64,000 bases of DNA from a virus. Its lineage: Duplodnaviria; Heunggongvirae; Uroviricota; Caudoviricetes. The stretch is from the IMG/VR virus record IMGVR_UViG_2851955134_000009. One strand, written 5' to 3'. The position numbers and the translations under genes were made by a program. Below, piece by piece: positions 8,415 through 46,967 of this stretch. Positions within the stretch are counted from its first letter, which is position 1, and the number at the start of each line of letters is the position of its first letter. The notes below the pieces were generated by a model, which was not told where the DNA came from, searched no databases, and saw nothing but the letters and a program-made list of their open reading frames with translations.

Positions 8415-8839
8415 TACGTGCGCTGGCGGTAGTGGCGGCGCTGGCACTCGTTGCGCTGGGCTGGCAGTCGTGGCGGCTTAACAGCGCCAGCCATACCATC
8501 GAAACGCAGCGCGCGGCGCTGAAAAGTAAAGCGCACGAACTAACGAAGAAAAATAGCCAGCTGATCAGTCTGTCCATTCTGGCTGAAACCAACAACCGGG
8601 AGCAGGCGCGGCTCTACGCCGAAGCAGAACAGACCAGCGCACAGCTGAGACAACGACAACGCCGGATCGAGGAACTGAAACGTGAGAACGAGGATTTACG
8701 CCACTGGGCTGATACTCCTTTGCCTGCTGACATTATCCGGCTGCGGGAACGTCCGGCACTCACCGGAGGTGCAGCTTACCGTCAGTGGTTGTCCGCGAGT
8801 GACGCCGTGTCGGCTGGAGCAGGCAGCACCGCGCACTAA
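8411..8839 (+). CDS. lysB: i-spanin (Rz/LysB-like)
   Basis: N-terminal TM segment and coiled-coil-rich periplasmic part; a lipoprotein ORF is embedded in the +1 frame. Confidence 0.65.
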   Translation: MIRALAVVAALALVALGWQSWRLNSASHTIETQRAALKSKAHELTKKNSQLISLSILAETNNREQARLYAEAEQTSAQLRQRQRRIEELKRENEDLRHWADTPLPADIIRLRERPALTGGAAYRQWLSASDAVSAGAGSTAH

Positions 8840-8918
8840 CGGTGATCTGAATGCGTTGCTGGATGAAACGGAGGCCGCCTGGGCGGTCTGTGCAGACAAA
8901 GTGGACATGATTATTTGA
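8682..8918 (+). CDS. lysC: o-spanin (Rz1/LysC-like), 3' end truncated by the Mu-like insertion
   Basis: Lipoprotein-like N-terminus (LLTLSGCG). The ORF stops at the TGA supplied by the first three bases of the inserted element. Joining the flanks restores 18 more codons (96 aa total) that overlap the R start. Confidence 0.65.
   Translation: MRTRIYATGLILLCLLTLSGCGNVRHSPEVQLTVSGCPRVTPCRLEQAAPRTNGDLNALLDETEAAWAVCADKVDMII
8910..8915. repeat. ATTATT direct repeat, left copy (putative target-site duplication)
   Basis: Identical hexamer directly abuts both termini of the Mu-like element (8910-8915 and 46511-46516). Confidence 0.6.
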
Positions 8919-8959
8919 TGCGCCGCGCGATAAATGCGCTCTATCTTGTGCGATAAATG
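8916..8959. repeat. Mu-like element terminal repeat, left-hand copy in window coordinates (putative transposase-binding sites)
   Basis: TGATGCGCCGCGCGATAAATG...GTGCGATAAATGG; matches the reverse complement of 46467-46510 at positions 1-4, 7, 9, 12, 14-21, 33-35 and 37-43. Confidence 0.55.
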
Positions 8960-8993
8960 GCATCCACGCGGCGTTTCATTATTTGAAAAAGAA

Positions 8994-9566
8994 TTACATT
9001 TCAGGTTCCGTTATGACAGTCCCAACAGGGTGATAGCGGTAGATCGTTGACAGTCCAATATCATAGATAATTGCCAGCCGCTTTCTGTCATACCCTTTCT
9101 GGAGCAATCTTGCGATCTGCTCATGCTGCTCCTTCGTCAGTTTCGGGCGACGTCCTCCAACTCTCCCTTGTGCTCGCGCAGCAGCCAGTCCTGCCAGCGT
9201 GCGCTCAACTATCAGTTCACGCTCCATTTCTGCCAGTGCACCCATCATATGAAAAAAGAACCTTCCCATCGGAGTGCTGGTATCGATTGAATCCGTCAGA
9301 CTGCGAAAATTGACACCTTTTGCGCGTAGCTCTTCTGTGAGAGCAATGAGGTGTTTCATTCTTCTACCCAACCGATCCAGCTTCCAGACCACCAATGTAT
9401 CCCCTCTTTTAAGGCACTTTAAAGCGCGTTTCAGGCCTGGTCGTTCCGACTTGGTTCCGCTCATTTTGTCCTCAAAAATCTGTTCACATCCTGCGCACAT
9501 TAATGCATTGCGTTGCAAATCTGTGTTTTGGTCATTTGTTGACACACGTATGTAGCCAATCAGCAT
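8994..9566 (-). CDS. serine DNA invertase (Gin/Pin/Hin family)
   Basis: 190 aa from MLIGYIRVSTNDQ...; catalytic-serine N-terminal domain and C-terminal HTH typical of invertases. Start placed at the internal Met because the longer track ORF overlaps the fibre segment. Confidence 0.85.
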   Translation of the reverse strand: MLIGYIRVSTNDQNTDLQRNALMCAGCEQIFEDKMSGTKSERPGLKRALKCLKRGDTLVVWKLDRLGRRMKHLIALTEELRAKGVNFRSLTDSIDTSTPMGRFFFHMMGALAEMERELIVERTLAGLAAARAQGRVGGRRPKLTKEQHEQIARLLQKGYDRKRLAIIYDIGLSTIYRYHPVGTVITEPEM

Positions 9567-9622
9567 TAAAAATACTCCCTTTTGAGTGGTTAAAGTACTG
9601 AGATAATGTGAGGAGGATTTGA

Positions 9623-9648
9623 GAGATAAACGTTGGTTTGGGGGAAGG
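9623..9648. other. invertase crossover site (hix/gix-like), Mu-like cassette, invertase-proximal
   Basis: gagataaacgttggtttgggggaagg; core AAACCAACGTTT is shared with the sites at 11224, 50937 and 52762, and is inverted relative to 11224. Confidence 0.5.
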
Positions 9649-10099
9649 CTCTGCATTGCCTGTTGGTGTACCGGTTCCATGGCCCACCGCCACACCGCCA
9701 GCAGGCTGGTTACAGTGCAACGGAGCTACGTTCACCAAAGAACAATATCCTGTTCTGGCCAGAGTCTACCCGACCCTCCGTCTTCCCGATTTGCGCGGTG
9801 AGTTTATCCGTGGATGGGACGGTGGTCGCAAGGTTGATACCGGGCGTGCGCTACTTTCATTTCAGGAAGGGACTATCGTATCCGGTTTTGATGATAATGA
9901 TACCGGAGATATCAGTTCGCTCGGCTCTACACAATACGGATTTGGTGACGCTTTAACCTCTAATCAACTGGGGGTCATAAATGGCAAAAAGTGGATATTT
10001 GATGCATCCTCTAAAGGTGCACAAAGATATGACTGGTGGGCTTATGTATCAGCTCGCCCCCGCAATATCGCATTTAACTATATCGTGAGGGCGGCGTGA
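9638..10099 (+). CDS. alternative tail-fibre C-terminal (tip) segment, promoterless inverted cassette
   Basis: Begins with GEGSALPVGVPVPWPTATPPAGW, the same junction peptide found inside the fibre gene at 10720-12489; opposite orientation; ends NIAFNYIVRAA. Confidence 0.6.
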   Translation: MGEGSALPVGVPVPWPTATPPAGWLQCNGATFTKEQYPVLARVYPTLRLPDLRGEFIRGWDGGRKVDTGRALLSFQEGTIVSGFDDNDTGDISSLGSTQYGFGDALTSNQLGVINGKKWIFDASSKGAQRYDWWAYVSARPRNIAFNYIVRAA

Positions 10100-10105
10100 T
10101 ACCGT

Positions 10106-10720
10106 TCAGCCGGCAAGCGCCAGTGGCGCTTCCGGCCAGCTGATTTCAGGTGCCTTGCTGATATCCAGTGCGTTCAGCTCGTCGATATAATCCAGCACGG
10201 CGTTCAGTTTTGCCGTTTCTTCTGGTTTCAGACTGCGACCTGCCCGCAGTTTGAGGTTGATGAGGTCGATGGACTTCATCGCCTGATCCACCCGTTCCTG
10301 GCGTTGCAGTCTGGCAACCTCCAGCTCTGCGGCTCGCTGCCGTTCAGTATCGGTTACCCACGCCTCACCGTTCCAGGTATCCCATGGCGTGGCCGGCTGT
10401 TTTGTGGTGGTGTCCGCCGGGTAATCACCCGGCTGGGTAATCTGAACGGGAGTACCGTTCTCCGTGCTGTATACCGTCTCGCCGCGGTGATCAGGCACAT
10501 GTTCCCACCCGTTCAGCGTGGCAGTCCGGCAAACCACGTAACCCGAAATTGCCTCCGGCGGTGCATCGGCGCACGAATGTGCCGGAGTACCCACCCCAAG
10601 GGCGAGATACTCCACAGAGGATGAGGTGTATTCCCGGGTTTCCTCGTCATAGTGATATACAGTGATATCGCCCGCTACAGTGGCGATACCGTTTTCATCC
10701 AGAACTGCAGTGTTACTCAT
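10106..10720 (-). CDS. tail fibre assembly protein (chaperone)
   Basis: 204 aa immediately downstream of the fibre gene; homologous to the 200-aa protein at 51671-52273. Confidence 0.75.
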   Translation of the reverse strand: MSNTAVLDENGIATVAGDITVYHYDEETREYTSSSVEYLALGVGTPAHSCADAPPEAISGYVVCRTATLNGWEHVPDHRGETVYSTENGTPVQITQPGDYPADTTTKQPATPWDTWNGEAWVTDTERQRAAELEVARLQRQERVDQAMKSIDLINLKLRAGRSLKPEETAKLNAVLDYIDELNALDISKAPEISWPEAPLALAG

Positions 10721-12489
10721 TAAACTGCCCTCACAATGTAATTAAGTGCAATGCTACGGGGTCTGACAGTGATACCCTTCGCATACCCGCTTCTGATAGA
10801 GGTCAGAATAGTAGCCTGCATACCATTGTCTGACATTGCCACGACAGGATCGCTGAATGTTGTCCCGTCCGGCATTTTAAAGCTGCCCTCACGAAGGTCT
10901 GTAATGGAATCTTCATTGTTGAATCCCATGCCGACTATCCCCGAGGTTCCCGTAGTGTCCTGGTTATAATAATCCAGCATTGCTGTTCTTAACAGCGTTG
11001 CCCCTTGTGCGGACAGCAACTTACGTCCTGTATCAACTTTGCGCCCGTCGTCCCATCCACGGATAAACTCACCGCGCAAATCGGGAAGACGGAGGGTCGG
11101 GTAGGCTCTGGCCAGAACAGGATATTGTTCTTTTGTAAAGGCGCGCCCGTCGCACTTTAACCAGCCTGCTGGCGGTGTGGCGGTGGGCCACGGAACAGGC
11201 ACACCAACGGGTAGCGCCGAGCCTTCTCCTAAACCAAGGTAATTGAGGACATCTTTTATACTGCCCTTAGCGATAATAGCGCGACCAATAGCTGTAAGGG
11301 TTGCCAGCGCTGCGCGGTCTGCTCCGGTAAAATAAGGCAACCGATCTGCTGCAGTGGCAAGTCCTGCCAGAGCAGTGAGCGTGGCATCTGCCGGTTGTTT
11401 TCCGTTTGCCAGATCGTATGCAGCCTTGACCGCTTTCGGTGTGGCGGCCAGTATTTCAGACGTGCTGTTGATGGCACTGCTCAGTTGTACGGTGCCTTTT
11501 GCCGTCAGCGAGGCCGCAGGCACTCCCGTTATCTGACTCCACGGGTGAGTGTGGCTGGCAGGCGCCTTGCCGGCTGCCAGGTCGTATGCAGCCTTGACCG
11601 CTTTCGGTGTGGCGGCCAGCGTTTCAGACGTGCTGTTGATGGCACTGCTCAGTTGTACGATCCCTTTACGGGTCGTTGTTGCATCCTGGGCTGTGTATTT
11701 TCCCCGGGCCAGATCATACGCGATTTTCACAGCCTTCGGCGTGGCAGCCTCAGTTTCTGATTGACTGTCCGTGGCGCTGCTCAGTTGTACGGTGCCTTTT
11801 GCCGTCAGTGAAGCCGCAGGCACTCCCGTTATCTGACTCCACGGGTGAGTGTGGCTGGCAGGCGCCTTGCCGGCTGCCAGGTCGTATGCAGCCTTGACCG
11901 CTTTCGGTGTGGCGGCCAGCGTTTCAGACGTGCTGTTGATGGCACTGCTCAGTTGTACGATCCCTTTACGGGTCGTTGTTGCATCCTGGGCTGTGTATTT
12001 TCCCCGGGCCAGATCATACGCGATTTTCACAGCCTTCGGCGTGGCAGCCTCAGTTTCTGATTGACTGTCCGTGGCGCTGCTCAGTTGTACGGTGCCTTTT
12101 GCCGTCAGTGAAGCCGCAGGCACTCCCGTTATCTGACTCCACGGGTGAGTGTGGCTGGCAGGCGCCTTGCCGGCTGCCAGGTCGTATGCAGCCTTGACCG
12201 CTTTTGGTGTGGCGGCCAGCGTTTCAGAGGTGCTGTTGGTGGCACTGCTCAGTTGGGTGAACCCCTTAGCTGTCAGTGTCGCGTCCGGGTGGTTACGGGA
12301 ACGTACGTGTTCAGCCAGTGACTGTGCGGCTTCCTCCGTTTTCTTCTTCAGCCATTTCGTCCTGTTTGCCAGTTGCCGGGGGGCTCGATTTGATATCCCG
12401 TCTGCACCACCCAGAACCGGATCTGATGTCTCCAGTTGATAGATATTTTCTTCCCACTTTTCTGTTTCATTCAGGTTTCCCATAATCAA
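10720..12489 (-). CDS. tail fibre protein with internal tandem repeats
   Basis: 589 aa; Ala/Thr-rich repeats of about 100 aa; C-terminal tip segment begins at the crossover junction (LGLGEGSALPVGVPVPWP). Confidence 0.8.
   Translation of the reverse strand: MIMGNLNETEKWEENIYQLETSDPVLGGADGISNRAPRQLANRTKWLKKKTEEAAQSLAEHVRSRNHPDATLTAKGFTQLSSATNSTSETLAATPKAVKAAYDLAAGKAPASHTHPWSQITGVPAASLTAKGTVQLSSATDSQSETEAATPKAVKIAYDLARGKYTAQDATTTRKGIVQLSSAINSTSETLAATPKAVKAAYDLAAGKAPASHTHPWSQITGVPAASLTAKGTVQLSSATDSQSETEAATPKAVKIAYDLARGKYTAQDATTTRKGIVQLSSAINSTSETLAATPKAVKAAYDLAAGKAPASHTHPWSQITGVPAASLTAKGTVQLSSAINSTSEILAATPKAVKAAYDLANGKQPADATLTALAGLATAADRLPYFTGADRAALATLTAIGRAIIAKGSIKDVLNYLGLGEGSALPVGVPVPWPTATPPAGWLKCDGRAFTKEQYPVLARAYPTLRLPDLRGEFIRGWDDGRKVDTGRKLLSAQGATLLRTAMLDYYNQDTTGTSGIVGMGFNNEDSITDLREGSFKMPDGTTFSDPVVAMSDNGMQATILTSIRSGYAKGITVRPRSIALNYIVRAV
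11224..11249. other. invertase crossover site (hix/gix-like) inside the Mu-like fibre gene
   Basis: ttctcctaaaccaaggtaattgagga, at the constant/variable junction of the fibre protein. Confidence 0.5.
11521..12120. repeat. two identical 300-bp tandem copies within the tail-fibre gene (diverged partial copies flank)
   Basis: Sequence from 11521 onward is identical to that from 11821 onward; a third, diverged copy starts at 12121; in frame (100 aa per unit). Confidence 0.8.
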
Positions 12490-14498: not shown

Positions 14499-14552
14499 GG
14501 GGGCAGTATTGCCCCCGTGCGGGAACGCTGATATTAAAGGCGTTTAAGAAGC

Positions 14553-33058: not shown

Positions 33059-33782
33059 AACTGCTGCCTCCCCATGTGAGATATCGCGGTGCCAGCTCGC
33101 GCAGGATGCGTTGTGGATAATGGCGGTTCTCCCGCCAGCTGGCAGCATTGCGTCCGGCATTCACCGTGGCGACATGTCCGAACCAGCGCTGACTGTCCAG
33201 CCCCAGATATGCGGCGAGCCGCTGGTCACGGCGCACCCAGCCCGGGCCACCGTTATAGCCCGACAGTGTCATGGCCATACGCTCGCAGTCGCTGGCGGCA
33301 CTGATGCGCTGCCACAGCCAGCGGTCATAACTGACCAGCGCCCGGATAGCCCATGCCGGATTAAACGGCTCTCGACTGCTCAGCGCCGGCATCAACTGGC
33401 TTATCCAGTCGGCAGTGGCAGGCATAAACTGCGCCAGTCCCTGAGCCCCCACCGGCGAGATCGCATCAGGTCGCCAGCCGCTTTCCTGATGCAGTTGCGC
33501 AGCGAAATCAGCCACCGGCGCAGACAGTCCCCATTCAAGCCGGGCATTACGGATCACATCATCGCGATACTGCAGGGCAGCCCGCGGGGGCTGTGCTGCG
33601 GATGCCTGACTGAAAAAGCCACCACACCAGAGCAACATTGCGACAAAGAATACCCATGCCATATGAACCAGAAAGGTCCCGGCGCGGACTGACAGGCGTT
33701 CGGTTCTGATGAAGACCCGAAAGGCTTCGAAAGCCAGTTTCAGGGACATGCATACAATCCAGGTGATCTGCGGCCAGTTCAT
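33042..33782 (-). CDS. endolysin, lytic transglycosylase-like with N-terminal membrane anchor
   Basis: 246 aa with a hydrophobic N-terminus; sits between holin-like and spanin genes at the start of the late operon. Confidence 0.55.
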   Translation of the reverse strand: MNWPQITWIVCMSLKLAFEAFRVFIRTERLSVRAGTFLVHMAWVFFVAMLLWCGGFFSQASAAQPPRAALQYRDDVIRNARLEWGLSAPVADFAAQLHQESGWRPDAISPVGAQGLAQFMPATADWISQLMPALSSREPFNPAWAIRALVSYDRWLWQRISAASDCERMAMTLSGYNGGPGWVRRDQRLAAYLGLDSQRWFGHVATVNAGRNAASWRENRHYPQRILRELAPRYLTWGGSSCVASG

Positions 33783-33784
33783 GA

Positions 33785-34135
33785 TTAAAGCCCCATCGCA
33801 ACAGCCAGACAGACAGCTGCAACAATCAGTGCACGACGAAGCAGGGCGGCAGCAAACACCAGATGAAGCCCGGTCTGTACGGGCCAGCGCCCCTCAGCCA
33901 TGAGGCGCTCGTCATGCTTCAGGTACTGCCCCGGGCGGGCCTTCGGGAAGAGCGAGCGGTCCAGCCAGTAGCCGAGAACGGAGGCGAGGGAGATGAGAGA
34001 GAGCTTGTACACCACCACCGGCAGCTGCTGGGGCGAGACCAGCGCGATGATGAGGAGCAGCAGTACGGCGGCAACAAGCCAGCCACGCAGGCGGGTTTTT
34101 TGTACGTCTGCGATAAGGGAGGTGAGTTTTTTCAT
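33785..34135 (-). CDS. putative holin/membrane protein
   Basis: 116 aa with two to three TM segments; first gene of the leftward late operon. Confidence 0.45.
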   Translation of the reverse strand: MKKLTSLIADVQKTRLRGWLVAAVLLLLIIALVSPQQLPVVVYKLSLISLASVLGYWLDRSLFPKARPGQYLKHDERLMAEGRWPVQTGLHLVFAAALLRRALIVAAVCLAVAMGL

Positions 34136-36352: not shown

Positions 36353-36700
36353 TCAGCCTGCGATTTTTCCTGGTTTTGGCTGAGTATAGAAGCGCCCAAC
36401 CTCAAGAAATGAGCGTCGTTGCTCCGGAGTCATTTCATCAAATGCGTCCATTAATTTCTGTTTGTCTGGTGACATTTTTGGGATAGCGTTGGTAGTTGCA
36501 TCCCCTCTCTGTCCCGTAACAACGTAAAGCACGTCAAGCCCCAAAGTAGCCCAAATTGCCAAAGCATCTGCTCCGGGAGCGGATTCATCCTTTTCCCACC
36601 GCAATTGGCTTTTATAGGATGCCCCCACCAATTCAGCAAACTCAGACTGACTAAATCCTAGGCGGTTTCGTTCTTCTTTTAATCGTGAACCAAGTGACAT
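36353..36700 (-). CDS. HTH (XRE-type) repressor, Mu c-like position
   Basis: N-terminal HTH (LKEERNRLGFSQSEFAELVG); divergently transcribed from the Ner-like gene. Confidence 0.6.
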   Translation of the reverse strand: MSLGSRLKEERNRLGFSQSEFAELVGASYKSQLRWEKDESAPGADALAIWATLGLDVLYVVTGQRGDATTNAIPKMSPDKQKLMDAFDEMTPEQRRSFLEVGRFYTQPKPGKIAG

Positions 36701-36793
36701 TTTTGTCCCAATATCTATTTACATATCCCATTATTGGGATAATAATCTAACAAATATAAAGCAAACATCATTGCACTAAACAAGGAGACAACA
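36701..36793. promoter_or_regulatory. divergent early control region with operator-like inverted repeat
   Basis: Intergenic region between repressor and Ner-like genes; contains atccca-ttat-tgggat (36725-36740) plus a related half-site upstream. Confidence 0.3.
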
Positions 36794-36982
36794 ATGACTG
36801 CAGACCAGGTCAAAGCTCATTTCCGTCGCAATGGGATCACTTTTACCCAGTGGGCAAAACAGAACAACTACACCAGAGCGGAGGTTTACCGCGTACTGAA
36901 TGGCCAGGTAAAAGCGAACTACGGCAAAGCCCATGAAATCGCTGTCAAGCTGGGATTAAAAACCATCACTGACGCCGCTTAA
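36794..36982 (+). CDS. Ner-like DNA-binding protein
   Basis: 62 aa; the segment GKAHEIAVKLGL resembles the Ner/Nlp family; first gene of the rightward early operon. Confidence 0.6.
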   Translation: MTADQVKAHFRRNGITFTQWAKQNNYTRAEVYRVLNGQVKANYGKAHEIAVKLGLKTITDAA

Positions 36983-37035
36983 AAAGATACAGCATACGAA
37001 AAAGATTATCACATATTGAAAAAAGAGGTGTGCAG

Positions 37036-37344
37036 ATGAGTAAGACGAATGTTTCAAGCTCCGGCAGTCGCATCCTCCGGGTACTAAAAGCGCTGCGTGG
37101 TCATGCTCTGAACGGTATTTCCAACGGTGAACTGGCAGCAGCACTGCACGAGTCACCGGCGAACATCAACCGGGCACTCAACACCCTCATTGAAGAAGGG
37201 CTGGCTCTGAAACTGGAGAACGGACGTTTCGCACCGGGCATTCAGTTGCTGCAGATCGCCATGGCCCACAGTAACGAGATGGCACGTGCACAGGATCGTA
37301 TTAACGAAATTAACCAACGTGTTATTTCAGGAAGTCGTTTGTAA
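37036..37344 (+). CDS. putative winged-helix transcriptional regulator
   Basis: About 100 aa; HTH-like segment (ISNGELAAALHESPANINRALNTLIEEGL). Confidence 0.35.
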   Translation: MSKTNVSSSGSRILRVLKALRGHALNGISNGELAAALHESPANINRALNTLIEEGLALKLENGRFAPGIQLLQIAMAHSNEMARAQDRINEINQRVISGSRL

Positions 37345-37354
37345 GGAGTAATCA

Positions 37355-38272
37355 ATGGGACGCACCAAATCACCGGTTAGCACTGAACTGAACGTCGAGG
37401 TACCGCTGTCGGATGATCTCAATGTCAGTCTGAACGCCATGACACAGCATCGCATGGAAATCATGCAACAGTTCGGCGATGGTCTGCCCTATGAGCGCGA
37501 TCGTGTTGTCCATGAGGCACGCTTTTATATGGCACAGAGCGCTGAGGCCATGCTGGAGGCAGGTAAACGGCTAATAATCCTTAAGGAAAATGAACCACAC
37601 GGGGAGTTTATAAAGATTCTTGAAAGTGAGTTGGGGCTGGCATACCGGACATCTGTGAGAATGATGCAGGCATCGACAAAATACTTATCCCCGGCGCTGA
37701 AACCAAATGTGCCAACGTTGGCACATTTGGGAAAAGCCAAACTTTTCGAATTAATGACAGAAGACGACGAAGAGCTTGCCGAACTGGCCGACGGCGGTAC
37801 GGTTGCCGGCCTGACGCTTGACGATGTTGATCGCATGTCAGTACGTGAACTTCGTCAGGCCCTGCGCGAAGCGCGCGAAACCAATGCAGCACAACAGCGT
37901 GTTCTAGCCGACAAAAATGAAAAAATCGACTCACTCTCCACCAGGCTGGAGAAAAAATCCCGTATTCAACCGCCTGAGCCTGATGAAGAGGTGAAGAAGC
38001 TGCGGGCGGAAGTGACCGCATTAGCGGTTGAGGCGGAATCTGCCATCGCCGTCCGGCTCTCCGGTGCCTTTGAAACCCTGTGTGAATACTGCAGTAAAAA
38101 CATGATTGATACCCCCAGAGATTTCATGGCCGGTCTGGTCTGCCAGATTGAACGCAGTGTTCATGCATTGCGTGAGACGTTCGACCTTGATGCCGCACCA
38201 TCGGGTAACGATGTCCCCGCATGGCTGACCGAACCGGAGCCTGAAATCAACCGACCGGAGGGCATGCGTTAA
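37355..38272 (+). CDS. hypothetical protein (early region)
   Basis: 305-aa ORF with a coiled-coil central region, between Ner-like and transposase genes. Confidence 0.35.
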   Translation: MGRTKSPVSTELNVEVPLSDDLNVSLNAMTQHRMEIMQQFGDGLPYERDRVVHEARFYMAQSAEAMLEAGKRLIILKENEPHGEFIKILESELGLAYRTSVRMMQASTKYLSPALKPNVPTLAHLGKAKLFELMTEDDEELAELADGGTVAGLTLDDVDRMSVRELRQALREARETNAAQQRVLADKNEKIDSLSTRLEKKSRIQPPEPDEEVKKLRAEVTALAVEAESAIAVRLSGAFETLCEYCSKNMIDTPRDFMAGLVCQIERSVHALRETFDLDAAPSGNDVPAWLTEPEPEINRPEGMR

Positions 38273-38589
38273 TGAACACGAATAATACACAAAATATCCT
38301 GATGGACAGCCCGGAAGCACTGGGGCACGCACTGTGTAATCTGCTGCCGGAGATGGTGCAGGGTTTCCGCGTGGTGACACCTTCCGGTGAAATCTGCGTA
38401 CCCGCACAGGAGGCGCATCCGTTTGTACTGACGATGGAAGTGATGCTGATGCAGCAGATAAGACGTCTGCAGCATCAGTCAGCATTGCGCCCGGCAGTTG
38501 CGCCGCAACCGGTAAATAACGTGGTGAAAACCTGCGATGGCGAAACCCTGCGCGACCGTGCCAGAAAAATTGCCGCCAGAATCGGATAA
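38272..38589 (+). CDS. hypothetical protein
   Basis: 105-aa ORF whose start overlaps the upstream stop. Confidence 0.3.
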   Translation: MNTNNTQNILMDSPEALGHALCNLLPEMVQGFRVVTPSGEICVPAQEAHPFVLTMEVMLMQQIRRLQHQSALRPAVAPQPVNNVVKTCDGETLRDRARKIAARIG

Positions 38590-38604
38590 CAGGGAAGACA
38601 AGCT

Positions 38605-40374
38605 ATGACCCCGGCACTGACTGAAAAACTTGTTGAAACAGCCCGCGCGGCACGTAATGCGGGGCATGGTAAACGCGGTGCAATATACGACGCTGCCTGT
38701 GCTGAACTTGGCATGTCCCGCGCCACTCTGCTGCGCAGGCTGAAGGAGGTCTCTGTGACTGATAAACGCAAAAAACGCGCCGATGCCGGACGCAGCACCC
38801 TGACCCGCGACGAAGCCGCGCTGATATCTGCCACACTACGTGAGGCCACCCGCAAGAACGGTAAGCGTCTCTATTCCATCGCGGATGCAGTGGAAACCCT
38901 GCGGGCTAACGGCTTTATCTCCGCAGGCAGAACAGATGAAACCACCGGTGAGTTTTTCCCGTTGTCCGAAGATGCCATCAGTCGTGCCCTGCGTAACTAT
39001 GGCCTGCACCCGGAACAACTGGATGCCCCTGCACCGCATACCGAAGTGGCCAGTCTGCACCCCAATCATGTCTGGCAGATTGACGCCTCACTCTGCACGC
39101 TTTACTACCTGAGCAATGGACATAAAGGGCTGCAGGTGATGGACAGCGCGAAATTCTACAAAAACAAGCCCGCTAACCTTGCCCGTATCGCCAGTGACCG
39201 CGTGTGGAGTTACGAGATTACCGACCATGCCAGCGGCTGGATTTACGTTGAGTATGTGACGGGTGCGGAATCCGGTGAGAACCTGTGTTCTGTGCTTATC
39301 AACGCCATGCAGGAGCGTGGCGGCGCAGACGTGCTGCACGGCGTGCCAAAAATACTCTATCTCGACCCCGGCTCGGCAAACACCGCGGGTATGACGAAAA
39401 ACATGTGCCGCTCACTGGGCATCGACCTGATAGCGCACAAGCCGCATAACGCCCGCGCCACCGGACAGGTGGAAAAGGCGCGTGACATTATCGAACGCAA
39501 GCTGGAGCCGGGTCTGAAGTTCCGGCCGGTTCACAGTCTGGAAGAACTCAACGCGCTGGCCGCGAAATGGCGCAGCCACTTTAACGCCACGGCTGTTCAC
39601 AGCCGCCACGGTAAAACCCGCACGGATATCTGGCTGAAGATTACTGCTGAGCAGCTGAAAAAAGCGCCTTCCGTTGAGGTATGTCGTGAACTGGCTGTGG
39701 CGGCACCAGAACTCCGCAAAGTCACGCCAAAACTTCGTGTCTCGTTCCGGGGCACTGAATTTGACGTATCAACGGTACCGGGCGTACTGGTCGGTGAAAA
39801 ACTGATGATTACCCGTAACCCGTGGCGCAGCGATGTGGCACAGGTGGTTCTGACCGGTGAGGACGGCCACGAGACGTTCTTCCTGGTCGAAGAGGTCAGA
39901 AAGAACGAGTTTGGCTTTGCTGAAGGCGCGGCGGTATTTGGCGAAAGTTACAAAGCCCTGCCGGAAACCCCGGCGCAGATGGCGGCAAAAGAAACCGAAG
40001 CGCTGGTCACCGGTACAGACAACGCCGCAGATGCAGCTGCCGCACGCAAGGCGAAGGCGCTGCCGTTCGGCGGGCGGCTTGACCCGTATAAACATATTGA
40101 TGACGCCACACTTCCGGCCTGTATACCGAAGCGTGGTCAGGCCTCTGACGTACGCGGACCGCGCACTGAACAGCGTCCCATGACTCATGTGGAGGCCGCG
40201 AAAGCCCTGCGCGGGAAGTTTAGCGCAAACGGCCTGACCTGGACGCCGGAACATTACCGCCAGTTAACAGCACAGTACCCGGACGGCGTACCGGAAGCCG
40301 CACTGGATGAAGTCATGGCCACGCTGACCACGCCGGCCCGCAGCAGCGTTATCAGCATTGTTAACGGCAACTGA
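38605..40374 (+). CDS. DDE transposase (MuA-like)
   Basis: 589 aa; rve-type catalytic core with candidate DDE residues (WQIDAS, YLDPGSANT, downstream E); followed by a MuB-like ATPase. Confidence 0.75.
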   Translation: MTPALTEKLVETARAARNAGHGKRGAIYDAACAELGMSRATLLRRLKEVSVTDKRKKRADAGRSTLTRDEAALISATLREATRKNGKRLYSIADAVETLRANGFISAGRTDETTGEFFPLSEDAISRALRNYGLHPEQLDAPAPHTEVASLHPNHVWQIDASLCTLYYLSNGHKGLQVMDSAKFYKNKPANLARIASDRVWSYEITDHASGWIYVEYVTGAESGENLCSVLINAMQERGGADVLHGVPKILYLDPGSANTAGMTKNMCRSLGIDLIAHKPHNARATGQVEKARDIIERKLEPGLKFRPVHSLEELNALAAKWRSHFNATAVHSRHGKTRTDIWLKITAEQLKKAPSVEVCRELAVAAPELRKVTPKLRVSFRGTEFDVSTVPGVLVGEKLMITRNPWRSDVAQVVLTGEDGHETFFLVEEVRKNEFGFAEGAAVFGESYKALPETPAQMAAKETEALVTGTDNAADAAAARKAKALPFGGRLDPYKHIDDATLPACIPKRGQASDVRGPRTEQRPMTHVEAAKALRGKFSANGLTWTPEHYRQLTAQYPDGVPEAALDEVMATLTTPARSSVISIVNGN

Positions 40375-40384
40375 GGAGGGAAAC

Positions 40385-41551
40385 ATGCTGGTACTGAAGC
40401 AGCAACTGAAAGAGGCCCGTATTCCACAGGCGGTGGCGGCGAGAGCTGTCGATGTTTCTGAGGCCACGCTGGCCCAGATTGTGAATCATAACGCGTGGCC
40501 CCGCACCAGCCCCGGAGAAGTGCGCCGGCGTCTTGCGTCCTGGCTGGAAAGTCAGGGGATTGATACAACGAAGAGTTTTGATGCTGTACAGGGCGCGGCC
40601 ACGCCCCGTACAGCGGGTACCACAGATAAAACGAGCCTCAGTGAGGAAGAGAATATGTTACTCAAAAAACAGGTGTTATTTCCAGCAACCAAAAAAGCGT
40701 TTGGTCTTTTCCGTGACCCGTTCGCCGATGAAGCCATGCAGGGTTCTGATGATGTGTTCACCACCCCGGACATTCGCTACGTGCGTGAGGCGCTGTACCA
40801 GACAGCCCGTCATGGTGGGTTTATGGCCGTCATCGGTGAGTCCGGTGCGGGTAAATCCACGCTGCGCCGCGACCTGACTGAACGTATTAACCGCGAGAAT
40901 GCGCCGGTAATTGTTATCGAGCCATACATCATCGCTATGGAAGACAACGATGTGAAAGGGAAAACCCTGAAGGCAGCAGCTATTGCCGAAGCCATTATCA
41001 GTACCATCGCACCACTGGAAAGCATCAGACGCAGTCAGGACGCCCGCTTTCGCCAGTTGCATCGCGTCCTGAAAGACAGCAGCCAGGCGGGGTTCAGCCA
41101 CGTTCTGGTGATTGAGGAGGCCCACAGTCTGCCCATTCCGACACTGAAACACCTCAAACGCTTTTTTGAGCTGGAGTCCGGTTTCAAAAAACTGCTGTCC
41201 ATCGTGCTGATTGGCCAGCCGGAACTGGCGACAAAACTGTCTGAACGCAATATGGAAGTCCGTGAAGTCGTTCAGCGCTGTGAGGTGGTCGAACTTCTGC
41301 CTCTGGACAATAACCTTGAAGAATTTCTGACGTTCAAACTGCAACGGGCCGGTAAACAACTGACGGACATTATGGACGCCAGCGCAGTGGATGCCATACG
41401 TGCCCGCCTGAGCAATCCGGGAAGTCATCGTAAAAATATGGTCAGCCTGCTGTATCCGCTGGCCGTCAGTAACCTGGTAATAGCCGCCATGAATCTGGCC
41501 GCTGAAATCGGGGTTCCACAGGTCAACGCTGACGTTGTCAAAGGAGTTTAA
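40385..41551 (+). CDS. transposition ATPase (MuB/TniB-like AAA+)
   Basis: Walker A GESGAGKST, Walker B-like HVLVIEEAH; immediately downstream of the transposase. Confidence 0.65.
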   Translation: MLVLKQQLKEARIPQAVAARAVDVSEATLAQIVNHNAWPRTSPGEVRRRLASWLESQGIDTTKSFDAVQGAATPRTAGTTDKTSLSEEENMLLKKQVLFPATKKAFGLFRDPFADEAMQGSDDVFTTPDIRYVREALYQTARHGGFMAVIGESGAGKSTLRRDLTERINRENAPVIVIEPYIIAMEDNDVKGKTLKAAAIAEAIISTIAPLESIRRSQDARFRQLHRVLKDSSQAGFSHVLVIEEAHSLPIPTLKHLKRFFELESGFKKLLSIVLIGQPELATKLSERNMEVREVVQRCEVVELLPLDNNLEEFLTFKLQRAGKQLTDIMDASAVDAIRARLSNPGSHRKNMVSLLYPLAVSNLVIAAMNLAAEIGVPQVNADVVKGV

Positions 41552-41553
41552 TA

Positions 41554-41823
41554 ATGAAATCCACCACAGGTATCAACCAGCAAATCAGCAAAGTGCAGTC
41601 AGCCATTATGGCGCTTAAGGCGACGAACACGGATGTACAAAGCATCACCATCAGGGGTAACAAACCTGTCATCCGCGTTTCCCGGAGTGCGCATTGCATG
41701 CGCATGCTTGAGCAGGGAAAGGCCTGTTATCTGTATACCGGACATGACCACAGGGGATATTTCCGTCAGGGCGTTTTCGAACTGCACGGCTGTCGCGTCG
41801 TGTGGCCGGAATCTTTGTGGTAA
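41554..41823 (+). CDS. hypothetical protein
   Basis: 89-aa ORF directly after the ATPase gene. Confidence 0.3.
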   Translation: MKSTTGINQQISKVQSAIMALKATNTDVQSITIRGNKPVIRVSRSAHCMRMLEQGKACYLYTGHDHRGYFRQGVFELHGCRVVWPESLW

Positions 41824-41850
41824 TCAGCACAACCGGAGAAATCATAAAAT

Positions 41851-42381
41851 ATGGCAAAAAGTACAAAAGGGGCAAAACGTATCAAGGCCGCAGCGGCACT
41901 CTGGGTACCAGGGACACGCGAAGAGGTCATTGAGGGAATCAGACTACTCGGTGACGCACAACGTGAACTGGTCAGGGCTGAAACAGAAATGAATGACGCC
42001 ATTGGCGATATCACCGCACGTTATGCCCCGCTCACCGAGAGCCTGAAAAAACGCATGGCCGAACTGCAGTCCGGTATCCAGACATGGTGTGAGGCGCACC
42101 GTGATGAACTGACCGGCAACGGGAAGGTGAAGTTCGCTAACCTTACCACCGGCGAGGTGCAGTGGCGAAACCGTCCGCCATCAGTCAGTATCCGTGGGGC
42201 GGATAATGTTATTGAATTACTGAGACGTCTGGGGCTTGAGCGCTTTATTCGTGTAAAAGAGGAAATAAATAAAGACGCTATCCTGAATGAAAAAGAGGCC
42301 GTGAAAAATATTCCCGGTATTTCCATTAAAAGCGACATTGAGGATTTTTCAATAATTCCTTTTGAGCAGGATGTGCAGTAA
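41851..42381 (+). CDS. Gam-like host-nuclease inhibitor protein
   Basis: 176 aa; position after the B-like gene as in Mu. Confidence 0.5.
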   Translation: MAKSTKGAKRIKAAAALWVPGTREEVIEGIRLLGDAQRELVRAETEMNDAIGDITARYAPLTESLKKRMAELQSGIQTWCEAHRDELTGNGKVKFANLTTGEVQWRNRPPSVSIRGADNVIELLRRLGLERFIRVKEEINKDAILNEKEAVKNIPGISIKSDIEDFSIIPFEQDVQ

Positions 42382-42478
42382 ACACACCACGTTAATTATT
42401 TAATAAAAACATTTTCTTTTTTATTCCGGCGTCAGCGCCGCGGGCTTCTGCACGCCGGAAACAGAGGAGAATTAAATC

Positions 42479-42673
42479 ATGATATTTAAATGTATTCAGT
42501 GCGAGAGGGATATAACAGCCCTGCGTTTTCACAGCGCCATCGCCGTGATGTCCGGTAAATACCACATCCCTGCGGTACGCGTCACCCTGGTCTGCCCGTA
42601 CTGCAGCCAGCATTTTTCGGCGGACGTGCCCGTCATGGAATTCTCCCGCCCTGACAGGGAGGACGCGCAATGA
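42479..42673 (+). CDS. zinc-ribbon small protein
   Basis: 64 aa with CIQC...CPYC. Confidence 0.3.
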   Translation: MIFKCIQCERDITALRFHSAIAVMSGKYHIPAVRVTLVCPYCSQHFSADVPVMEFSRPDREDAQ

Positions 42674-42942
42674 TTACCCCACAGGAAGCACGACAGCGCA
42701 CCCGAACCCTTGTTGAACACTATGTCAACGAGTGTGAATGCCGCAACCTCACCGATGTGAAGCACGTCCTGACGGCACTAATCAGTATGGCCGCTCAGGC
42801 CATTGTGGCAACCAACGGAAAGGCGGCTGCCCTGCAGGTACTGGTGAACACACTCACCCACACGGCAGAGCATGAGGTGCCGTACCGGATGGAAACCACT
42901 GCAGAAGGCGGCCTGCACATCACCGTCAGCCGGAAGCACTGA
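42670..42942 (+). CDS. hypothetical protein
   Basis: 90-aa ORF in an operon-like run with overlapping start/stop codons. Confidence 0.3.
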   Translation: MITPQEARQRTRTLVEHYVNECECRNLTDVKHVLTALISMAAQAIVATNGKAAALQVLVNTLTHTAEHEVPYRMETTAEGGLHITVSRKH

Positions 42943-42951
42943 GGGCGCGGC

Positions 42952-43248
42952 ATGACACGGAACACCATACTCACCCGCACCGCCCTCTACCGTCTGGCCC
43001 TGCAGCGTTTCGGGCCGGACGCACAGGCCCTGAAACTGACAGAAGAGGCCGCTGAACTGGCGGCCAGTGCTGCCCGCAATCTGAACGGACAGGGCAGCGA
43101 AAGTGACCTCGCGGCAGAGCTGGCAGACGTGGAAATCATGACAGAGCAATTGCGCCTTCAGGGAATGGACCGGCTGATTGACTTCCACAAACAGAAAAAA
43201 CTGGAACGTCTGGCTGCACGACTGGGCGTGATTTACACGAACGAGTAA
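42952..43248 (+). CDS. hypothetical protein
   Basis: 98-aa ORF, early region. Confidence 0.3.
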   Translation: MTRNTILTRTALYRLALQRFGPDAQALKLTEEAAELAASAARNLNGQGSESDLAAELADVEIMTEQLRLQGMDRLIDFHKQKKLERLAARLGVIYTNE

Positions 43249-43262
43249 CCGGGAGGCATTCA

Positions 43263-43478
43263 ATGGCTGACATACTCAGGGAAATCACCGCATGGACACT
43301 GATTCTTACTGGCCTGGCGACATGCCTCAGTGCGGGAGCAGCCCTGGCTGCCCTGCTGATGCACATAACAACACAGTGGTTATGGGAAAAGCTTAAAGCA
43401 GCATACAGCCTGAAAGAGCTGTCCGACGCTGTCCGGGCATGGAAACGGCAGAAAAATACCGGAGATACAGAACAATGA
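43263..43478 (+). CDS. small membrane protein
   Basis: 71 aa with one TM segment (ITAWTLILTGLATCLSAGAALAALLM). Confidence 0.3.
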   Translation: MADILREITAWTLILTGLATCLSAGAALAALLMHITTQWLWEKLKAAYSLKELSDAVRAWKRQKNTGDTEQ

Positions 43479-44158
43479 CAGACCAGAATAAACACATTGA
43501 GAAACTGAAAAAGTTGCTGGCGCTGGCCGCATCCGGCAACCCGCACGAGGCCGCTCTGGCACTGCGCCGAGCCCGTAAACTGATGGATGTTCACGGCATC
43601 ACACATTCCGACATTGCTATGAGTGATATTGATGAAACCATCAGTCATTACTGGCCGACAGGCAGTCTCCGTCCACCGCGCTACATGCTGGGCCTGATGA
43701 ACATCATCCGCGAGGCATTTGGTGTTAACTCCATCATTCACCCCGGCACGCATCCGTCTGTGGGGTTCTACGGTAACCGGGAACGAGCGGCACTGGCTGC
43801 GTACACCTGGGAAGTGCTGGTCCGCCAACTGAAAAAGGCGCGTCAGCAGTATATCAGCGCACAGAACAAAAGAATAAAAAACGCCACCCGTACCAGCCGT
43901 GGAGACCAGTTTGCTGAAGGCTGGGTACTGGCCGTTATCAGTGAAATACAGTCCTTTGCCCTGACCGATGATGAGCGTGAACTGATGCAACAGTGGCTGG
44001 AACATAAATACCCGCAAACGCAAACCACCAGGGCGCGTAAACCGGGAAGAAGCCGCAATGGCGACGTCTCGCGCTATGCGGGGTTTCGTGAAGGGCAGAA
44101 CGTCAGACTGCACCGCCCGGTCAGTGGGCAGGAACAGCAGAAACTGGAGGCCAGATGA
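43476..44158 (+). CDS. hypothetical protein
   Basis: Start placed at MTDQNKHIEKL; about 227 aa. Confidence 0.35.
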
Positions 44159-44375
44159 TTACGTTATCAGGTAACAGCCGGAAATTAAAAGCCTGCCGAA
44201 TATCTCCCAGATACCTTTTTGCCCGCGCCTTTTTTAAGAACGTCAGGCCGGGGATCACAATTGGTGTTATTGCCGGACGCGAACAGGTTGAAAAATACAT
44301 GTCAGGTGCATGGTGGAATAAAGACCCTGTCATTGCTGCCCGTAATATTCATATCAGTTGGGGGGATATTCAGAA

Positions 44376-44590
44376 TGACTGCTGAATCTGTTGTATGTGC
44401 CCTGTTCTGGTATTGTTTTGTCGGTTGGTGTACTGCTGAACTGCACCGCCGTTCAGGGTTTTATTCACGTTACAGTGGTGCCGGTTACTGGATTAGCTGG
44501 TCGGTGATGTTCCTGTGCTGGCCTGTGGCATTTCCTTTATATGTCTATTATATCAGTGATGCAGGCAGAAGGAGCAACGATGATGACTAA
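44376..44590 (+). CDS. small membrane protein
   Basis: About 70 aa with two hydrophobic segments; overlaps the longer track ORF 44219-44590. Confidence 0.3.
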
Positions 44591-45032
44591 ACAACGTCTT
44601 ATCCAGCTTATCCATATTGCCCGTAATGAACTGGGTATGGATGAAGACACCTACCGCCAGATGTTACAGGGGCTGACCGGTAAAGCCTCAACCAAAGGAA
44701 TGGATACCACACAACTAAACTGCGTGCTGGAATCCATGAAAAAGAAAGGCTTTCGCGTTAAACCAGCCAGAAAAGCCAGCTCCGGTTTACCGCTGGATAA
44801 CCATCCGCAGTCCAGGAAAATTCGTGCGCTATGGCTTGAAATGGCTGCTGCCGGCATTGTTCGTGACCGTTCAGAAAATGCATTAGCGAGGTGGATCAAG
44901 CGGGAAACGGGCATCAGCGCCCTGCGCTGGCTCAGTACTGAACAGGCAGGCAGTGTTATTGAGAAACTGAAGAAGTGGCAGCACAGAGCTGCGGGAGTAA
45001 AACATGAGCGACCTGAATCAGTTTCGAAGTAA
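44580..45032 (+). CDS. GemA-like regulatory protein
   Basis: Start placed at MMTKQRLIQLIHIARNELGMDEDTYRQ; position immediately upstream of the Mor-like gene as in Mu. Confidence 0.55.
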   Translation: MMTKQRLIQLIHIARNELGMDEDTYRQMLQGLTGKASTKGMDTTQLNCVLESMKKKGFRVKPARKASSGLPLDNHPQSRKIRALWLEMAAAGIVRDRSENALARWIKRETGISALRWLSTEQAGSVIEKLKKWQHRAAGVKHERPESVSK

Positions 45033-45402
45033 AGGGCCGGAACTCCTGGTGGAACTGGCACAGCATACCTCTGAGACCGTTCGCGAGATTATTGATATTG
45101 AGCCCGCAATTGCCGACCAGATTGGTCAGGCCGTCGCGAACCGCATGATGCAGGTCTGGGGCGGGCAAAACGTTTATTTCCCGATGGGCATGGTATGGAA
45201 GGTCAGTCAGCGCGACCGGGAAATCTTCAGGGAGTTTAACGGACGTAACCACCATGAACTGGCCCGCAAATTTGGTGTTTCGCTTCAGTGGGTCTACAGC
45301 GTGGTTAAGCGGGTAAGAAAAGAAGAACTGGATCGGATGCAGGGCAGGTTGTTTGATGAAGATCTGCCAGAGGAGACGAAAGACGTTAACAAATCCAGAT
45401 AA
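45004..45402 (+). CDS. Mor/C-family transcriptional activator
   Basis: 132 aa; C-terminal HTH (HELARKFGVSLQWVYSVVKR) typical of Mor/C. Confidence 0.65.
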   Translation: MSDLNQFRSKGPELLVELAQHTSETVREIIDIEPAIADQIGQAVANRMMQVWGGQNVYFPMGMVWKVSQRDREIFREFNGRNHHELARKFGVSLQWVYSVVKRVRKEELDRMQGRLFDEDLPEETKDVNKSR

Positions 45403-45447
45403 TTCCTGCTTGTTAAAGTCCTTTCAAAAATCTCCTTATTGTATAAA

Positions 45448-45479
45448 AGCACGGTAGACCCCTTACCGTGCTTTTTTTA
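45448..45479 (+). terminator. rho-independent terminator after the Mor-like gene
   Basis: Stem agcacggta/taccgtgct with a 7-nt loop followed by a T7 run. Confidence 0.6.
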
Positions 45480-45516
45480 TGCTCTCTCTTTAGTATTCAG
45501 GATGCAGGGAGAAAAT

Positions 45517-46149
45517 ATGTTTGACGTTTCGTTGTTAAATCTGCCATGGGCAACACTGGTGACCCTGACCAGTGGCTATATTGGGTATTTTATTGCGAAT
45601 GTGGGACTGAAGGATCACCACAAGCCCATTGAGGTGACTTTTTCTTCGCTGATTTTTGGCCTGACAGCAATGATGGCTTACCAGGCTGTTATGTGGGCAG
45701 GTCTGAATGCCTGGCTGGCAACACCACCAGCACTTCTGTGTGCCGTTACATGCGGTGCGTGGTGGCGCAGGTACGGTCGCAAATGGATGTACAGATTACT
45801 GTGGAATAATGATATTTCATGGTCTGACGATACCAGCTCAGCATGGCAGGCAATGTTTGATCAAACAGGCTTCAGCGTTACCGAGGTCAGAGTGATTCTT
45901 CGCGATGGTTCCGGTATGATGTCACGGCTGCCAGGGAACTTTGAAGAGTGGCCTAACGGTCCGTTTACCCTGGGGAATAAAGGCGATATGGTTCTTTACG
46001 TCACGCACAGCAGCCCTTCAGGCAGTAACGAATGGGAAGAGTATAAAGGCGTGGTTGATAAGTACTGGGGAGCTCTGGCAACCTATATTCCAGCAGATCA
46101 GATTGCCAGAGTGGAGATCAGGCGCGTTCGTGCAACGAACGATGAATGA
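45517..46149 (+). CDS. membrane protein of unknown function at the element terminus
   Basis: Start placed at MFDVSLLNL; three to four N-terminal TM segments and a C-terminal soluble domain; isolated between a terminator and the element end. Confidence 0.4.
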   Translation: MFDVSLLNLPWATLVTLTSGYIGYFIANVGLKDHHKPIEVTFSSLIFGLTAMMAYQAVMWAGLNAWLATPPALLCAVTCGAWWRRYGRKWMYRLLWNNDISWSDDTSSAWQAMFDQTGFSVTEVRVILRDGSGMMSRLPGNFEEWPNGPFTLGNKGDMVLYVTHSSPSGSNEWEEYKGVVDKYWGALATYIPADQIARVEIRRVRATNDE

Positions 46150-46466
46150 TGTTTATTTTTTCCCTGGGGCAGGGGCTGCCGGCATAGTGGTTTTATTGGC
46201 AGAGGAAGACGATTCTCCTTTTCTACCGGAATCGCGCTCGAACGTCACGATGTGCTTGCTTTTGGGCTTTTCTGAGTAATCCAGGCTATCATGCTTATTG
46301 TTTTGAGTAGTCATTGGAATCATCCTTTTTGTTGCGGGTCATGTTTCAGCAAACTCGATTCTAAGTTGCCAGGAAGGATGATTTCAATGCCCGACTTATC
46401 TATCGTATAGCGGAAAAGAATTTCAGTTCTGTTCACCAGAACCCATGTTAACCCACTCCAATTCGT

Positions 46467-46510
46467 TATTTATCTCACGGATCCCCCTTCATTTATCTCA
46501 TGTCTGATCA
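46467..46510. repeat. Mu-like element terminal repeat, right-hand copy in window coordinates (putative transposase-binding sites)
   Basis: Reverse complement reads TGATCAGACATGAGATAAATG...GTGAGATAAATAA, matching the end at 8916. Confidence 0.55.
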
Positions 46511-46516
46511 ATTATT
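46511..46516. repeat. ATTATT direct repeat, right copy (putative target-site duplication)
   Basis: Identical to 8910-8915. Confidence 0.6.
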
Positions 46517-46535
46517 GCGTGTCAGGAGCGAAACA

Positions 46536-46967
46536 GTGAACAAACCACAATCCCTGCGCCACGCCCTCAATAAAGCGGTGCCTTATGTCCGCAATAACCC
46601 GGACAAACTGCATCTGTTTGTGGATAACGGTTCGCTGGTTGCCACGGGGGCCAGCTCCATGTCATGGGAGTACCGCTACACCCTGAACGTGGTGATTGAG
46701 GATTTCAGCGGCGACCAGAATCTGCTGATGGCCCCGGTTTTGCTGTGGCTGCGTGATAACCAGCCCGATGCCATCAATAACCCGGCGTTACGGGAAAAGC
46801 TATTCACCTTTGAGGTGGATATTCTGCGCAACGATGTCTGTGATATCAGCCTCAACCTGCAACTGACGGAGCGTGTGCTGGTCAGCACTGACGGCAGTGT
46901 GTCGAGCGTTGAAGCTATAGCGGAACCTGATGAACCTGAAGAAATGTGGACGGTGAAACGTGGCTGA
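46536..46967 (+). CDS. R: tail completion protein (P2 gpR-like)
   Basis: GTG start at 46536 with an AGGAG RBS; the upstream ATG of the track ORF (46500) lies inside the Mu-like terminus. Confidence 0.65.
   Translation: MNKPQSLRHALNKAVPYVRNNPDKLHLFVDNGSLVATGASSMSWEYRYTLNVVIEDFSGDQNLLMAPVLLWLRDNQPDAINNPALREKLFTFEVDILRNDVCDISLNLQLTERVLVSTDGSVSSVEAIAEPDEPEEMWTVKRG

Follow-up and report, generated by a model that had tools for sequence, protein, structure and literature searches.

Insertions of Mu-type transposable phages are a textbook source of mutations: the gene that is hit is disrupted, a few bases are duplicated and the downstream genes of the operon are cut off from their promoter. We analyzed a 64,000-nucleotide stretch of DNA from an IMG/VR virus record (IMGVR_UViG_2851955134_000009), hereafter the window, in which the same pattern is found at an unusual target; unlike in the classical Mu cases considered, the operon that was hit is the late operon of another prophage. 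The window holds two nested prophages, a BcepMu-like one that is apparently intact and probably active, and a P2/186-like one that the insertion appears to have just inactivated. We assign a probability of about 0.85 to the reading that a BcepMu-type phage transposed into an otherwise intact P2/186-like prophage, ending both its supply of the tail completion proteins R and S and its ability to package itself. The case is a new instance of long-known polar insertion by a transposable phage, and no new mechanism is involved.

In P2, four Ogr-dependent late promoters that carry the motif TGT-N12-ACA transcribe PQ, ONML..KRS, VWJIHG and FI-FII-E-T-U-D (PMC3931495). Its LysB and LysC proteins form a two-component spanin of the Rz/Rz1 type with an overlapped gene architecture, and intact lysC ends inside R, whereas in the window the codons for LysC residues 79–96, including the conserved C80-Q-E, lie 37.6 kb away from the others. 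The inactivation of a prophage by a mobile element likewise has a described counterpart in E. coli O157 Sakai (Asadulghani et al. 2009, PMC2669165), whose defective prophages were inactivated by insertion sequence (IS) insertion or by deletion, whereas here the inactivator is a complete, probably active 37.6-kb phage; and, unlike the Sakai defective prophages, the P2-like prophage of the window shows no other decay. As for the Sakai prophages, rescue by other prophages in the same cell is conceivable.

Insertion site and target duplication

The inserted DNA occupies window positions 8916–46510 (37,595 bp, read directly from both boundaries) and has the termini TGAT...ATCA. It is flanked by two copies of ATTATT in the boundary sequence, the left one at 8910–8915 and the right one at 46511–46516. 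At the left boundary, the letters are GTGGACATG, then ATTATT and the opening of the insert, TGATGCGCC (in longer form TGATGCGCCGCGCGATAAATG). At the right boundary, the insert closes with TCTGATCA (in longer form CATGTCTGATCA), followed by ATTATT and then GCGTGTCAGGAGCG (in longer form GCGTGTCAGGAGCGAAACAGTG). The point of insertion lies between codons 78 and 79 of lysC, 20 bp 5′ of the start codon of R.

Joining position 8915 to position 46517 yields a contiguous lysB-lysC-R-S with no base lost or gained. Of 5426 complete E. coli genomes, 1012 carry the rejoined 1.2-kb empty site uninterrupted, with its genes annotated as lysB, lysC, a phage tail protein and a virion morphogenesis protein, and a shorter rejoined stretch of 482 bp aligns gap-free to Escherichia phage 500465-1 at 100% identity. 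Because the flanks rejoin contiguously in these genomes and in this phage, the event is a clean insertion with a 6-bp duplication and nothing lost. An earlier sequence-only reading had placed an insertion in the P2-like late operon; the ends of the insert and the ATTATT duplication are now fixed to the base.

The insert is flanked on both sides by late genes of a P2/186-like (Peduoviridae) prophage. Their order is Q, P, O, N, M, L, X, holin, lysozyme, lysB, lysC, the insert, R, S, V, W, J, I, H, G, an invertible fiber segment with its invertase, FI, FII, E, E+E′, T, U, D and ogr, and beyond ogr follow chromosomal ybjL, ybjM and grxA (99–100% identical to E. coli). The prophage site is rcdA-ybjL. 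An intact relative in strain STEC17-183 (L002 below) occupies the same site and is 186-like, since it has CI, CII and Fil. Compared with this relative, every visible P2-like gene from Q to ogr is full length, and LysC alone is split.

The insert itself is found elsewhere. An element of 97–98% identity interrupts a phosphopentomutase gene of E. coli PK8275 between direct repeats of another 6-bp sequence, GGATAT, and near-identical invertase-side ends adjoin many unrelated chromosomal genes in other E. coli strains, including those for an aromatic amino acid transporter and a glycosyltransferase as well as csiE, lptF, cirA and dcuC. The independent sites with different 6-bp repeats, and the ends beside unrelated genes, show that the element is a transposable phage. 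All 55 genes annotated in the PK8275 copy (55/55) are full length in the window. Based on this gene content and on the transposase, we take the insert to be a complete phage of the BcepMu group, not Mu proper, which is probably still active. A complete BcepMu-type phage would thus have lysogenized E. coli by transposing into the prophage resident at rcdA-ybjL.

Packaging, late transcription and lysis of the P2-like prophage

The 60-nm T=7 head of P2 holds 33 kb of DNA, and this cos packager needs cos at the terminase once the head has been filled; even three P4 genomes (~35 kb) package poorly (PMC6893505). The L002 relative measures ~35 kb from integrase to ogr; with the 37.6-kb insert the composite comes to ~72 kb, more than twice the capacity of the T=7 P2 head. 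By this comparison, the P2-like prophage would be unable to encapsidate its own genome, whatever the state of R, S and LysC, and an excised unit of ~72 kb should yield no infectious particles that carry it. The block would be essentially permanent, because transposable phages do not excise on induction. This size argument, which the sequence-only reading had missed, is the strongest one for inactivation, and the P2-like prophage is almost certainly dead, chiefly through size.

The cos site of the prophage probably lies to the left of the window. The sequence GGCGAGGCGGGGAAAGCAC, which we take to be P2 cos, has no match with up to 3 mismatches in the window, nor with up to 4 mismatches in L002 or a further comparison sequence (L003). 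A 13-nt stretch, AGGCGGGGAAAGC, occurs at 4258–4270 on the − strand, in the P/O intergenic region; it is presumably identical to the core of the P2 cohesive end, a match that may be due to chance, and the full 19-mer that we take as its context is not found in the window.

Both tail completion genes are intact on the far side of the insert. R (46536–46967, + strand; 143 aa) matches PF06891 with an E value of 5.7e-48 and is 97.9% identical over 143/143 residues to R of L002, and S (46960–47406, + strand; 148 aa), a tail completion/virion morphogenesis protein, matches PF05069 (E 2.3e-42) and aligns over 146/148 residues to its L002 counterpart. The true start of R is a GTG at 46536 with the Shine-Dalgarno (SD) sequence AGGAG at 46524–46528, both 3′ of the insert. 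A start at the ATG at 46500, given in the list of open reading frames (ORFs), was rejected because this ATG lies inside the end of the insert.

R and S keep their own SD sequence and start codon but sit 37.6 kb (lysC stop at 8918 to R start at 46536) from P_O, their sole usable late promoter. The TGT-N12-ACA motif occurs 20 times in the window, against ~17 matches expected by chance, and its matches in the P2-like DNA are confined to three places: in the divergent P_P/P_O region (4220–4295, with motifs at 4220–4237 and 4278–4295), directly after S and upstream of V, where P_V (47411–47428, + strand) marks the end of the P_O unit, and upstream of FI (53458–53475). The scan of the window found no motif ahead of R. 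Lacking such a motif, R and S depended on P_O. The claim that they are normally co-transcribed with the head and lysis genes is in line with the ONML..KRS operon of P2 (PMC3931495), and the claim that they now lie 37.6 kb downstream, cut off from those genes, is borne out by the 37,595-bp interruption.

To reach R, a transcript from P_O would have to cross ~25 kb of untranslated late genes in antisense, then the early operon of the insert and then a strong intrinsic terminator (45445–45475 and a T run to 45485, + strand), which has a 13-bp stem, a 5-nt loop and a run of seven T. Mu insertions are classically strongly polar, consistent with loss of the P_O transcript. R and S are thus likely to be effectively silent in P2-like late transcription, with weak read-through from a co-oriented gene at the end of the insert as the sole conceivable exception, and the predicted loss of their expression is well founded. 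The insert does encode an S-family protein of its own (26953–27408; profile match to PF05069), along with a Gp37 tail-terminator-like protein; it is unlikely to substitute for the P2-like S, because the two have no detectable pairwise similarity (BLASTP E 0.76).

The terminator is the only strong one found on the + strand of the insert, and no other was detected over the final 1 kb ahead of R, so that the description of R and S as lying behind terminators holds for one terminator and not for several. Past it, the last + strand gene before the junction encodes a predicted membrane protein of 210 aa (45517–46149, phrog_12870) with no Pfam or PADLOC match, and an ORF of 53 aa follows on the − strand (46153–46314, phrog_15726), with a good promoter-like site at 46387–46358 that reads inward. 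A 20-bp hairpin at ~46310–46390 covers the 5′ region of the 53-aa ORF and has no U-tail. By consensus scan and RNA folding, 46150–46536 holds no convincing outward promoter or terminator. The terminal cassette (45445–46510) may be a moron expressed in the lysogen. Both its 210-aa and its 53-aa protein recur unchanged (100% identity) in the PK8275 copy.

The insertion also truncates the outer spanin subunit (o-spanin). The lysC ORF (8682–8918, + strand) now encodes 78 aa instead of 96 and ends in VDMII, and its stop codon, TGA at 8916–8918, is formed by the first three bases of the insert. The rejoined gene restores a 96-aa LysC that ends in VDMIIACQERNSEQTTIPAPRPQ before the stop, and the orphaned 3′ end, 18 codons (ACQERNSEQTTIPAPRPQ) and TAA, lies at 46517–46573 (+ strand), where it overlaps the start of R; residues 63–82 of the L002 LysC align at 100% to 46511–46570. 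In these respects the sequence-only reading, which had the o-spanin end at VDMII with the loss of 18 C-terminal codons and a stop supplied by the insert, proved exact. As annotated in L002 too, lysC starts in the +1 frame inside lysB and extends past it.

What remains of LysC is still recognizable: it matches Pfam PF23793 with 51.3 bits (cut-off 27; E 1.1e-13) over profile positions 1–62 of 69, with the final 7 positions missing. Its lipobox (LSGC, with Cys21; in full LTLSG/C21) is present, and L18, S19 and C21 are invariant among 20 aligned homologues, out of 137 that were found, most of them named LysC. In the same alignment, the lost segment opens with A/S-C-Q-E-(R/K)-x-x-E-Q and continues into a variable tail of ~9 residues; Cys80 is present in nearly all 20 sequences, and the Q and the E-Q are at least 90% conserved. 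LysC, now ending at residue 78, thus loses the near-invariant C80-Q-E together with the variable tail. In lambda Rz1, nonsense mutations in the last six positions are harmless and W46X, which removes 15 residues, is lysis-defective (PMC5295617), a comparison that is indicative only, because Rz1 is much shorter than LysC and proline-rich. A LysC homologue of 78 aa (P0076) was considered as a truncated allele and rejected, as its N-terminus differs and its C-terminus is full.

On this sequence evidence, the function of the 78-aa LysC is doubtful and a lysis defect of the P2-like prophage is uncertain. The holin, endolysin and LysB of the P2-like prophage are intact compared with L002; lysB (8411–8839, + strand) encodes an Rz-like inner spanin subunit (i-spanin) of 142 aa, the same length as in L002, whose residues 17–142 align at 94%. 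P2 lysB is reportedly non-essential in the laboratory, lysB amber mutants only delaying lysis. The expectation that the prophage is defective for both lysis and tail completion is thus sound in its second half, where R and S lack a late promoter motif, and weak in its first, where all lysis genes but lysC are intact.

The insert has a complete lysis cassette of its own (32088–34135, − strand, with matches that include phrog_462). It comprises a holin (33788–34135, Holin_2-3), a soluble lytic transglycosylase (SLT) endolysin (33054–33782, named from the PK8275 annotation), an Rz-like i-spanin (32411–33061; phrog_1403, E 3.4e-91) and, adjoining it, a lipoprotein that is the probable o-spanin (32088–32414). 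For this cassette to act in trans, the two prophages would have to be induced at the same time, and the suggestion that the P2-like prophage depends on the inserted phage is speculative.

Several points weigh against inactivation by transposition as we propose it. The ~35 kb taken as the prophage size comes from the relative L002, and the packaging limit is deduced from the size of the capsid. The left third of the prophage, with integrase, repressor, replication genes and cos, lies outside the window. Scanning and RNA folding detected no intrinsic terminator between 45476 and R, and low-level read-through from the co-oriented 210-aa gene could enter R and S. Finally, a P2-like prophage of Klebsiella pneumoniae (GCA_041204265.1, positions 4001–4300 of the locus) has a natural TGA at the equivalent of LysC Cys80, near the truncation point of the window. 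Its LysC reads ...VDTIIS, stop, QERNSEQASILTPRPE, stop (the region is IIS-stop-QERNSEQ), and this allele could mean that truncated forms of LysC are tolerated.

These points bear most directly on the alternative that expression of the P2-like prophage is still competent, with R and S supplied by read-through or by a cryptic outward promoter and the 78-aa LysC working. The prophage could then make complete heads and tails, for example as the helper of a P4-type satellite or as tail-like particles, without packaging itself. R does retain its SD sequence and GTG, the last 1 kb of the insert is co-oriented with R and S and has no detected intrinsic terminator past 45475, the extreme C-terminus of lambda Rz1 is dispensable (PMC5295617), and the Klebsiella prophage with the Cys80 stop has all its visible neighbors called, from the capsid genes through a 142-aa lysB ORF, R and S and on to the baseplate genes. 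However, no sigma-70 promoter consensus is found on the + strand between the terminator and R, and the 390-nt untranslated gap ahead of R is a likely Rho substrate. Such transcription would also be uncoordinated with Ogr-dependent late expression, and the lost part of LysC holds the Cys and the Q-E that nearly all 20 homologues conserve. We consider competent expression unlikely.

A more specific variant is that R and S have been rewired, so that their only transcripts would be read-through products of the insert's terminal cassette, which contains the 210-aa gene. Tail completion, and with it a P4-satellite helper or tailocin-like function, would then hinge on transcription of the BcepMu-like prophage, an accidental regulatory coupling between two prophages. 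We regard this arrangement as very unlikely.

Age of the insertion

The left junction is spanned by none of the 5426 complete E. coli genomes (0/5426), and exact 35–39-mers of both junctions are absent from the GTDB species-representative genomes and from the JGI metagenome contigs. Neither the 78-aa LysC nor a 155-aa extended R ORF, the two products that the junctions create, is present in the protein collection searched. No gene decay is seen in the visible P2-like prophage, Q to ogr, when compared with L002. Because the junctions are unmatched, decay is absent elsewhere and the flanks rejoin perfectly, the comparison indicates a recent, single, strain-specific accident of near-random transposition. 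Mu-type phages insert essentially at random and are not excised on induction.

It had been proposed that the P2-like prophage may be a stable domesticated remnant, which in its strong form means a long-standing element stabilized by the insertion and kept by selection. A gene for LmuB of the Lamassu system (52–1374), likely to be cargo of benefit to the host, could favor the keeping of a dead prophage. Against this stand the left junction, which recurs in none of the E. coli genomes searched, both junctions, which recur in none of the representative genomes or metagenome contigs, the full length of all visible P2-like genes but LysC, and the identity over 482 bp of the insert-free lysC-R region to a phage record. 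Domestication is unsupported and, in our judgment, highly improbable.

An assembly artefact that joined reads of a replicating transposable phage to prophage DNA, conceivable in that such phages make many transient junctions during lytic growth, is just as improbable, because both junctions share one target position with a perfect 6-bp duplication and the flanks rejoin exactly, as expected of a single real transposition and not of a chimera.

With the P2-like prophage inactivated by transposition as the preferred reading, a prediction of intactness from gene content would misjudge this element, since all of its genes but one are intact and self-packaging would be impossible. The case also supplies the exact ends, the 6-bp duplication and the terminal motifs of a BcepMu-like lineage of enterobacterial phages often found in E. 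coli genomes. It opens no long-standing question, and its value lies mainly in annotation and strain biology.

Composition of the two prophages

The gene order of the insert (8916–46510) follows from the Prokaryotic Genome Annotation Pipeline (PGAP) annotation of the PK8275 copy mapped onto the window. Late genes run on the − strand from 8994 to ~34135, in the order Gin-type invertase, invertible tail-fiber segment, P2-like baseplate, tail and sheath genes, head genes, terminase and lysis genes, the last being lipoprotein, Rz-like spanin, SLT transglycosylase and holin. Immunity and early genes run on the + strand from ~36750 to 45402, with a DNA methylase gene followed by a Ner-like gene, the DDE transposase gene (38605–40374; homology and PK8275 annotation), directly after it the gene for an ExeA/MuB-like ATPase (40385–41551), then Gam, GemA and, as the last gene of the early/middle operon, a Mor-family activator (45004–45402). 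A helix-turn-helix repressor gene lies on the − strand between the methylase and Ner-like genes. After Mor follow the strong terminator, the 210-aa membrane protein gene, the 53-aa − strand ORF and the end of the element.

Transposase identity is 98.5% with Escherichia phage PhiKM, 68.0% over 98% of the protein with BcepMu (NC_005882.1), 68% with phiE255 and 56% with Pseudomonas phage B3. Phage Mu was not among the phage records matched by the transposase, whose only Escherichia matches were PhiKM and Phi06_2974 B. Mu-like in the broad sense, the insert thus belongs strictly to the BcepMu group, and it differs from Mu in further ways: the target duplication is 6 bp rather than the 5 bp of Mu, its early and late genes form two blocks that run apart from mid-element, and the transposase matches phages of the BcepMu, phiE255 and B3 type. 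Its nearest relatives among isolates are Escherichia phage PhiKM and Klebsiella phage KP12, both of the BcepMu/phiE255 group. Like this group, the insert has P2-like contractile tail genes, Mor, GemA, an SLT endolysin and scattered insertion sites; the BcepMu record has its transposase gene near one end, at 4725–6467 of 36,748 bp. Unlike BcepMu and phiE255, the window element represents an enterobacterial lineage with a Gin-type invertible tail-fiber segment.

The two ends of the element were compared in the same orientation. Both the end next to the invertase (8916–8960, TGATGCGCCGCGCGATAAATGCGCTCTATCTTGTGCGATAAATGG) and the opposite, inverted end (46467–46510) begin with TGAT. The invertase-side end carries two GATAAATG motifs, and the other end carries GATAAATG and GATAAATA at offsets that match them. 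These terminal motifs are presumed to be transposase-binding repeats.

Compared with the PK8275 copy, otherwise 97–100% identical, the immunity region (36356–36979) is swapped. The repressors are only 49.6% identical and the Ner-like proteins 72.6%, and the two copies are probably heteroimmune. The invertible tail-fiber segment (~9633–11240) has the opposite orientation in the PK8275 copy (99.9% identity), and it adjoins the Gin/Cin-type serine invertase (8994–9566, − strand; 190 aa, Pfam Resolvase and HTH_7). A long tail-fiber gene (10720–12489, − strand) contains tandem internal repeats of ~300 bp, in which a motif beginning ATPKAVKAAYDLAAGKAPASHTHPWSQITGVPAASLTAKGTVQLSS occurs three times; the PK8275 copy lacks one of these repeats and is annotated there as a 250-aa tail protein and a partial pseudogene.

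At the left edge of the window, a gene of low GC content (33–42%) at 52–1374 (+ strand) matches the PADLOC profile LmuB of the Lamassu anti-phage system over positions 220–597 of 611 (E 3.6e-23). It encodes the last ~440 aa, at the C-terminus, of an LmuB-like SMC ATPase, the rest of the gene being cut off by the start of the window. It sits just past the 3′ end of the portal gene Q, in the variable hotspot of P2-type prophages, and the last ~80 bp of Q diverge from L002.

The P2-like prophage has an invertase of its own (52843–53409, + strand) within the region 51259–53409; it belongs to the Gin/Cin family and is 75.5% identical to that of the insert, and each invertase adjoins the invertible tail-fiber segment of its own prophage. 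An identical 17-bp sequence, ATAAACGTTGGTTTGGG, occurs at 9626–9642 (+ strand) and at 52782–52766 (− strand). Should these copies act as crossover sites, the two prophages could recombine and thereby invert ~43 kb.

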